Assembly (NCBI GenBank): GCA_023920165.1
Contig: CP089280.1
Coordinates: 992,001-1,056,000 of the forward strand
Reading direction: 5' to 3'
Source: Curvularia clavata
Taxonomy: Eukaryota
DNA length: 64,000 nucleotides
The notes below the pieces were generated by a model that did not search any database, was not told where the DNA came from, and saw only the letters and a list, made by a program, of their open reading frames with translations. How positions within the stretch are numbered: position 1 is the stretch's first letter; every line of letters begins with the position of its first letter. Below are positions 60,801 through 61,826 of the stretch, in pieces. The position numbers and the translations under genes are program-made.

Positions 60801-61826
60801 CAGCAGCGAACGGTCCGCCTTCTTGGATGAAGCGACAGGCAGTAGCAGCCCAGATGAACAGACCGCATGCACTCTGCACTAACCGTCTGATGGTCTCTAC
60901 ACCTGGCCAACCATCCGCCTGATTACATTCTTCTGCAATGATCCTAAGATAGTGCTCAAGAAAGAGTCCTATGTCGTGGTCAACGATCGACGGCGATATG
61001 TTGTGCAGCACAACGTCCTGGTGCTCTGCCTCAGGAATCTGACGGAGCCCGTGTCGGATTGGTACCTCTGGCCTGCTTGTCAGCAGCACCCGCAGCCGGA
61101 CCTTCGTTAGTGATCGAGCCTCAGCCAATAGCTGTACGATAATGCGGATGTTGCTGTCGTTGTCGCACTCGTCGAGCGCATCGACGACTACGATGTATGT
61201 TGCTTGCCCTGCTTCTAGCTCGTGCAGCTTCGACAGCGGGTGGAGAACGAGGTGGTGCCACTGGTCGCGTAGAGACTGGCTAGCAACGTCGTCGCGCTCT
61301 GCAACTGCGTCGCTAATAAGCTGCTTCAACGCTGGCATATTGCGTGTAAGCTGCGCTGCAAGGCTCGTCACGAACTTGCCTGCGTGTCCTACATCGCCGC
61401 CGCCGCGCGAGAAGAAGAAGCTGGCCGCCAGACGCTGCTTGTCGTAGTAGCTGCGCGCCACGGTCCGCGCGATCGTCGACTTGCCTGTGCCTGCCAGGCC
61501 GCTGAGCCAGAAGATGCACCGCTCGTCTTGCCCGTCCGCCCAGCTGTATATCTCTTGTAGCAGATCGACGCGCGTGTCAGCGAGACATGTAGGCTCGTGC
61601 TGCTTAGCGTACGAGTTGAAGGGCGCATCTTCGGCGCGCGGGAGACGGTCGAGTGTGTTCTCAAGTCCTGTTTGATGTGTCTGCTTAGCGTCCCGCATCT
61701 ACTGGACAGCTTGACGGCCCTAGGACGGTCCCGCGACGTACCAATATGGATAGAGCCGTTGATGTTGTTAGCTTGGACGCTCTTGTACGCGTTGCCGAAC
61801 GCCATGTTAGATGTTATAGAGGCCAT
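57836..61826 (-). CDS. NACHT-WD40 NLR-like protein (HET-E/NWD type) lacking an N-terminal effector domain. Exons about 61826-61742, 61667-60034, 59980-57836.
   Basis: CLADTRVDLL, Walker A WLSGLAGTGKST, ASFFF, Walker B VVVDALDEC, LTSRPE, HPSFRDFL and YACRYW, then 13 WD40 repeats. Both introns splice in frame. Confidence 0.93.
58124..59761 (-). repeat. 13 x 126-bp highly conserved WD40 tandem repeats
   Basis: The unit LxGHSxxVxAVVFSPDGxLVASASxDxTVRxWETATGHCRSV was counted 13 times in the translation. Confidence 0.95.

Follow-up and report, generated by a model that had tools for sequence, protein, structure and literature searches.

What does the very short first exon of an NLR gene in Curvularia clavata encode and, if it is an amyloid-signalling motif, to which class does it belong, is it decaying, and with what would it signal? 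The gene lies on the minus strand of a 64-kb stretch of DNA that was analysed as a whole (the window), and a first-pass annotation had proposed that its exon 1 carries a PP-like motif rich in N, G, S and Q, which could be either a new specificity subclass or a decaying copy. Exon 1 (61742..61826) spans 85 nt that encode 28 residues plus one base, namely a 9-residue leader and a putative PP-related amyloid-signalling head (F10 to I28) with the core S-V-Q-A-N. By manual count N, G, S and Q make up 12 of the 28 residues, which bears out the description of the peptide, except that Q occurs just once. A GTACGT donor follows directly and opens intron 1 (61668..61741; 74 nt, phase 1, GTACGT...CTAAG...AACAG). 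Exon 2 (60034..61667) encodes a linker and the NACHT domain (Pfam matches PF05729 and PF24883) with the Walker A motif GLAGTGKS and the Walker B motif VVVDALDEC, and is separated by intron 2 (59981..60033; 53 nt) from exon 3 (57836..59980), which encodes the WD40 sensor array and the stop. Pfam recognises 13 WD40 stretches in exon 3, and the array (57836-59760) is built of near-identical 42-residue repeats, two of them identical. Joined, the three exons give 3864 nt that encode 1287 amino acids with no inner stop, i.e. an intact NACHT-WD40 NLR.

The 74-nt splice joint was seen in contigs of the RNA-type runs X7 and X13, which come from two studies, and was not found in the two DNA runs examined; the 'RNA' label of X7 and X13 is the guess of a tool, and is backed by the splice joints. 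Intron 2 is spliced in both runs as well. Six CAG/TAG acceptors were tried in the 142 nt that follow, and just that of the 74-nt intron keeps the frame into the NACHT exon; one AAG acceptor would likewise leave this frame open. The position and phase of intron 1 recur in all three other heads with an intron that were read (one in locus L001, two in L002). The database protein P0001, labelled Curvularia clavata, is 100% identical to exon 2 of the receptor, and its gene model has the same intron 1 and starts at Met8. A second in-frame ATG lies at 61847, 7 codons upstream of the exon 1 ATG, and the choice of start codon is predicted. The 5' untranslated region (61827..62065, minus strand) is covered by RNA-type contigs and holds no effector tail, and its likeness to other head cassettes stops ~50 nt upstream of the ATG. 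It is thereby confirmed that exon 1 is spliced onto an intact NACHT-WD40 NLR, and the claim of a motif on its own exon with a phase-1 intron directly behind it stands. In X7 one deeper contig over 61782-61814 has a different Lys codon and a different leader; this single contig represents another NLR of that organism that is transcribed and has a head of the same type.

Scored against a profile made solely from PNP_UDP effector tails, the exon 1 peptide reaches 30.4 bits, a value attained by none of 2000 shuffles (the best had 11.6 bits), and against canonical PP tails alone it reaches 20.4 bits, again with none of 2000 shuffles as high. The score against sigma tails (3.4 bits) is at shuffle level, with 222 of 2000 shuffles as high, and against HRAM-like tails, a set of our own making, it is 8.2 bits, which 13 of 2000 shuffles equal; the PUASM pattern FxGxGxQxxGxGxF, compared by eye, is not matched. 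Profile scoring speaks for PP-type tails and against an assignment to sigma or HRAM. In a six-frame scan of the window exon 1 was the sole match of at least 10 bits (22.2 bits in that scan). The gap-free alignment with effector tails puts S at Q-2 and N at Q+2, and the annotation had therefore chosen the correct register when it laid the peptide over FGxxNxGxQAGxIxG with S and N at the Gly positions. Effector tails have Gly at Q-2 in 66 and at Q+2 in 41 of 71 distinct sequences. The canonical PP core, given as NxGxQxGxN (PMC9815663) or as G-phi-Q-phi-G (PMC7885112), agrees with Y-K-S-V-Q-A-N-N-I at Q alone. PF17046, the PP motif model of Pfam, matched neither exon 1 nor P0001, P0065 and P0045, and bare exon 1 had no Pfam match, the sigma (PF17106) and HRAM (PF11558) models included. 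PF17046 is insensitive here, since it also misses the GRD and Ser tails described below and P0024, which has been published as PP. The sister head KNG46890 shares the exon frame with exon 1, and KNG46890/P0024 is classed as NLR07, that is PP, in table S1 of PMC9815663. The head aligns without gaps with effector tails of PP type as well as with published PP heads and, as is general for fungal amyloid motifs, it is a short N-terminal motif on an NLR without an effector domain. On these alignments the exon 1 head is PP-related by descent and not canonical PP; the PP-like label holds by homology and genomic context, but not by a PF17046 match or a strict pseudo-palindrome.

The tails to which the head is homologous are the C-termini of a family of stand-alone PNP_UDP proteins of ~365 amino acids (P0242-P0361). 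Sorted with patterns of our own, which misfile a few, 123 effector tails comprise 52 canonical PP, 26 GRD, 7 Ser-type, 4 sigma and 11 HRAM-like tails and 23 without any of these; PP, sigma and HRAM-like tails sit on very similar PNP_UDP enzyme domains of one family. The tail of P0312 is repeated. Ser-type tails follow the pattern F-G-N-S-R-D-S-I-Q-A-G-x-I-N-G and are intermingled with GRD tails on a tree of the enzyme (30 rows, the filter having dropped most canonical tails), where the six Ser rows require six changes, at least five of them forced. A single 90% cluster with 15 members listed contains 12 Ser tails, 2 GRD tails and 1 member with neither. In five comparisons of A-Y heads with GRD tails the heads have 0-1 charged residues and the tails 3-4. 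A scan for the effector in the genome-contig and viral-contig collections gave no match.

How widely is the head itself conserved? Homologous NLRs were fetched by the NACHT domain alone, and the core F-G-N-A-Y-x-S-V-Q-A-N-x-I-x-G is present in 8 of the 120 matches listed, P0001, the protein of the window itself, among them. The A-Y-x-S-V-Q-A-N core occurs under the labels Curvularia, Bipolaris (three), Macroventuria and Didymella, which are four genera of Pleosporales, and conservation of the exon among homologous NLRs is thereby borne out. The same exon frame accommodates S-x-Q-A-H heads (four proteins among the 120 listed) and other heads that are canonical PP (P0017, P0058), G-F-Q-A-H (P0024) or G-F-Q-x-R-D (P0006, P0093). 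No PP head was called in 103 of the 120 listed, for the most part gene calls with a later start, along with five HET-domain proteins and a single HRAM-like head. When 1.84 billion representatives were searched with a profile, 18 matched, 13 of them Ser-type heads at the top, and none was an effector tail; the profile takes in the NLR leader and for this reason favours heads. The other five were set aside as not of the window type, P0399, P0401 and P0403 being unrelated, P0400 a GRD head and P0402 a Ser head ahead of what reads, by eye, as an NB-ARC-like start.

The relation between heads and tails is best seen where the two genes are neighbours, and a motif scan of metagenomes supplied three informative loci with four matches (L001-L003). 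At L002 an intact stand-alone PNP_UDP gene lies ~320 nt upstream of an NLR with a window-type head and the phase-1 intron; its tail ends in F-G-N-N-Q-R-G-I-Q-G-R-D-I-H-G, of GRD type, and the adjacent head and tail have 7 of 20 residues in common. P0411 (GRD tail) and P0065 (window-type head) bear consecutive locus tags in a Didymella assembly. The fused gene models P0423 and P0415 run from a Ser tail into a Ser-His head, and the fused model P0426 from an effector, the tail of which is spliced out, to an off-frame window-type head. At L001 (6566-6690) an effector remnant has lost its PNP_UDP domain and kept a Gly-type tail upstream of a Ser-His-head NLR. A Ser-type head is found in all four pairs that had not been fetched by the head pattern (P0426 by way of an off-frame translation), so that a Ser head is the form normally seen on the receptor at this effector locus, and the exact head type of the window stands beside a GRD tail in both pairs with a visible tail (L002; P0065/P0411). 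Since the effector tails beside such heads mostly keep the first Gly (G-x-Q-G-R-D), the Ser/Asn head looks like the receptor half of an unlike pair and not like a mirrored private code. The idea that Ser heads pair with Ser tails only was rejected, being contradicted by L002, P0065/P0411 and L001. Of the new specificity subclass raised by the annotation, the discreteness of the variant and the existence of Ser tails stand, but paired Ser heads adjoin both Ser and Gly tails.

Within the 64-kb window there is no effector tail homologous to the head. The likely candidate partner, judging from the sequences, is P0363, an intact effector on a different contig that is linked to P0001 by source labels, the two sharing an assembly label. 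Its tail is identical to the window head at 14 of 25 positions, the closing I-H-I-G included. The central ten residues of the head score 19.4 against Ser-type tails versus 10.8 against GRD tails, and over 20 residues the two scores are close (52.4 and 49.4). The heads of P0006, P0093 and P0400 fit GRD tails much better than the window head does, and because such heads exist P0363 may have another receptor. A complex prediction with three heads and three P0363 tails returned a score of 0.07 and is given no weight in either direction.

The annotation had also suggested that a dedicated exon would make the module easy to swap. In a tree of 44 rows built from NACHT alone, seven changes are required for the window-type head, at least five of them forced by well-supported branches, and this scatter supports swapping of heads; on the same tree the HET-domain rows lie on one side of a branch and the other labelled rows on the other. 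Between the two L002 NLRs identity is 94-100% in the stretch that begins 150 nt ahead of the ATG and ends 100 nt behind it, 88% over the following 100 nt and mostly 50-88% in exon 2; by its extent this tract is a cassette in which leader, exon 1 and intron were copied together. However, P0014 tracks P0376 to ~residue 210 and then switches, a breakpoint inside the NACHT domain, so that exchange is not tied to the intron. Motif-only first exons are also known from elsewhere: pnt1 has a single intron at ORF nt 95-148 (PMC7885112), from which, by our arithmetic on the phase, its motif too fills a phase-1 first exon, and in het-eN an overlooked 5' intron had hidden the motif from annotation (PMC3321046). 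The suggestion is therefore backed by the tree and the tract, but not by the breakpoint, and the arrangement itself is not new.

We moderately favour the reading that exon 1 is the receptor-side amyloid motif of a two-component NLR system that signals in trans to P0363, a model that builds on the observed gene structure, splicing, intact receptor, tail homology and adjacency in relatives. By analogy with NWD2/HET-S and PNT1/HELLP, a ligand at the WD40 array would lead to NACHT oligomers, and the clustered heads would nucleate a cross-beta fold that templates the effector tail. Clustering would then activate the PNP_UDP domain, which probably acts as a nucleosidase on nucleotides (ATP), with death or arrest of the cell as the outcome; ATP cleavage is the most tentative step and is drawn from the PNP domain of a fungal NLR, which cleaves ATP in vitro (10.1101/2023.01.24.525353). 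The Ser/Asn core would be the uncharged receptor form and G-[VI]-Q-G-R-D the effector form of a frame that head and tail probably share, F-G-N ... phi-Q ... I-x-G-x-phi-H-phi-G. We infer that the nearly uncharged head suits self-stacking and that the charged tail may resist spontaneous firing; in HRAM, too, receptor motifs are poorer in charge than effector motifs (PMC4518210). Having no effector next to it, the window receptor would act in trans on P0363, probably alongside at least one further NLR that bears this head, and the control of effectors from non-adjacent genes has been proposed for NLR12 with PNP_UDP (PMC9815663).

The same observations can be read differently. Ser at Q-2 might mark a separate specificity class with Ser-type tails as the true partners, in which case the tail alleles would be alternative 'keys' at one effector locus and the window receptor would be orphaned here or serve another effector. 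This would account for central-core scores by which GRD heads go with GRD tails and Ser heads with Ser tails, for the union of Ser tails with Ser heads in P0423 and P0415, and for Ser and GRD tails that are discrete and yet mixed on the enzyme tree and co-occurring in one 90% cluster. We nevertheless consider it rather unlikely, as the window-type head adjoins GRD tails and the L001 Ser head a Gly tail, and as the 1.84-billion search, albeit one biased to heads, brought up no effector tail. It is a good deal less probable still that the head mainly links paralogous NLRs as a shared scaffold and has ceased to drive an effector, or drives one weakly. The same head does recur among the NLRs of one genome (L002 has two, B. 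sorokiniana several proteins, and X7 the second transcript), and it spreads by conversion, but heads repeatedly adjoin tailed effectors, and many heads per effector have already been noted for HRAM3/NLR12 with PNP_UDP (PMC9815663).

That the head is a functionless, decaying PP copy kept by copying of the 5' cassette seems very unlikely to us. Four of the five NxGxQxGxN positions do differ, Pfam is silent, the window has no effector tail, and conversion can homogenise sequence in the absence of selection; the gene is intact and spliced, however, and the same core recurs across the four genera in NLRs fetched via NACHT alone. Nor is the second glycine fixed even in effectors, with Q+2 other than Gly in 30 of 71 distinct tails. 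Core dN/dS is 0.05-0.22 in the five differing comparisons of the window, L002 and L003, and 1.5 for the window versus L001; since these loci were fetched with the motif pattern and are hence biased, the lean to purifying selection weighs little. The decay that the annotation had offered as an alternative is thus unlikely from the comparative data. Least credible of all is that the cognate effector was the neighbouring PNP_UDP gene (63181..64000, plus strand), with a matching tail beyond the window. This gene is of the right family, lies head-to-head with the NLR and runs off the window with its 3' end outside, and a few distant relatives end in a motif-like manner (P0151, P0154, P0166, P0232). 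Yet it is 80% identical to an all-in-one PNP_UDP-NB-ARC-TPR NLR and 33% to the tailed family of the candidate effector, and it is disrupted, the frame shifting near codon 20 and a stop standing at 63945-63947, sites at which none of the four runs compared (two RNA-type, two DNA) differs. The gene is probably the first exon of such an all-in-one NLR. For the same reasons, and with the PUASM pattern unmatched, the idea that it is the effector and the head a PUASM motif was dropped. RNA-type contigs cover it in X7 and X13.

The favoured two-component reading resembles several known systems without coinciding with any of them. With PNT1/HELLP of Podospora anserina and Chaetomium globosum it shares a short N/G/Q motif at the N-terminus with phi-Q at its centre, close to residue 9, a partner tail on a stand-alone effector and a motif that fills a phase-1 first exon, and with the PP-PNP_UDP pairs of the NLR07 class (Wojciechowski et al. 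2022) the union of PP with PNP_UDP effectors. Unlike PP systems, the core glycines and flanking Asn of NxGxQxGxN are replaced here, without a PF17046 match, the receptor is NACHT-WD40 and not NB-ARC-TPR, the effector is not adjacent, and the centres of head and tail show systematic differences. The NACHT-WD40 architecture, the near identity of the WD repeats and a motif where an effector domain would otherwise stand recall NWD2/HET-S and the HRAM subfamilies (Daskalov et al. 2015), and HRAM likewise has discrete motif subfamilies with less charge in receptor than in effector motifs. In contrast to NWD2/HET-S, however, the motif is a different one, the tail is single and not a two-repeat prion domain, and the candidate effector is a predicted enzyme and not pore-forming. 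PUASM (NLR32) and PF01048_015 also combine a PNP_UDP effector, a NACHT or NACHT-WD40 receptor and a fixed head/tail difference, but the published PUASM pattern is, by eye, a different one. Sigma systems (het-eN, sesA, sesB) are alike in the 5' intron of het-eN and in having tails on the same effector family, and unlike in score and in the lack of a PF17106 match. Mammalian RHIM has a phi-Q core too, and its unlike partners RIP1 and RIP3 join in one amyloid, but the Gly two places after Q in the RHIM core is Asn here. The array of near-identical 42-residue WD40 repeats, finally, is like that of the hypervariable HNWD receptors.

The type of system (NLR, PP-type motif, PNP_UDP effector, motif-only first exon) is already known. 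The Ser/Asn variant was not described in the parts of the literature searched, and might fall under the NLR07, NLR39, NLR34 or PF01048_015 profiles. In the material searched from PMC9815663, B. maydis ENI03597 and B. oryzae EUC40167, both of the P0363 cluster, figure in the neighbour list only and not in the motif-pair tables, and several other accessions of the present set are absent from its supplements. Taken together, the comparisons present the head as a real variant of the PP-type motif on the receptor side of a probable PNP_UDP two-component system, expressed and conserved, not canonical and in all likelihood not decayed. In the usual description of PP and RHIM amyloids the core is flanked by glycines; a receptor form that is conserved without either of them and has several natural tail partners would separate the positions that set the fold from those that set the partner, a standing question for fungal amyloid signalling and, via RHIM, for necroptosis. 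As Pfam misses PP-type motifs in fungi of the Bipolaris/Curvularia type, two-gene immune systems are probably undercounted there.

A bolder generalisation, possible but in our estimate more doubtful than not, is an amyloid 'plug-board' in Pleosporales. One PNP_UDP locus with interchangeable tails (canonical PP, GRD, Ser, sigma, HRAM-like) would be combined with a 5' exon cassette that moves, copies of it ending up on NACHT-WD40 and NB-ARC receptors that are not related to one another. Lacking both glycines, the Ser/Asn head would serve specifically as an uncharged nucleator and would seed an effector tail that differs from it in sequence and is guarded by charge, and several scattered receptors would converge in trans on one enzyme. 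If this were true, the head and tail alleles would form a natural series for the rules of specificity in amyloid cross-seeding.

Several minor observations concern the surroundings of these genes. A 3063-nt X7 contig that spans the broken PNP_UDP gene has a GT-AG intron spliced at 62652-62709 on the minus strand and is either antisense RNA or a leader of great length that points to the NLR. Between the two genes, at ~62400-62620, lies a short repeated element where depth is high and loose ends are numerous in each of the four runs. The same gene precedes the effector-NLR cassette at all the related loci seen (L001 6200-6540; L002 3700-4980; L003 20-550; P0257, P0423), and its C-terminal pattern is putatively CorA-like. 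Just downstream of the NLR in the window is a BTB-domain gene (56094-56789), and by eye a BTB-like frame also lies near the L001 cassette.
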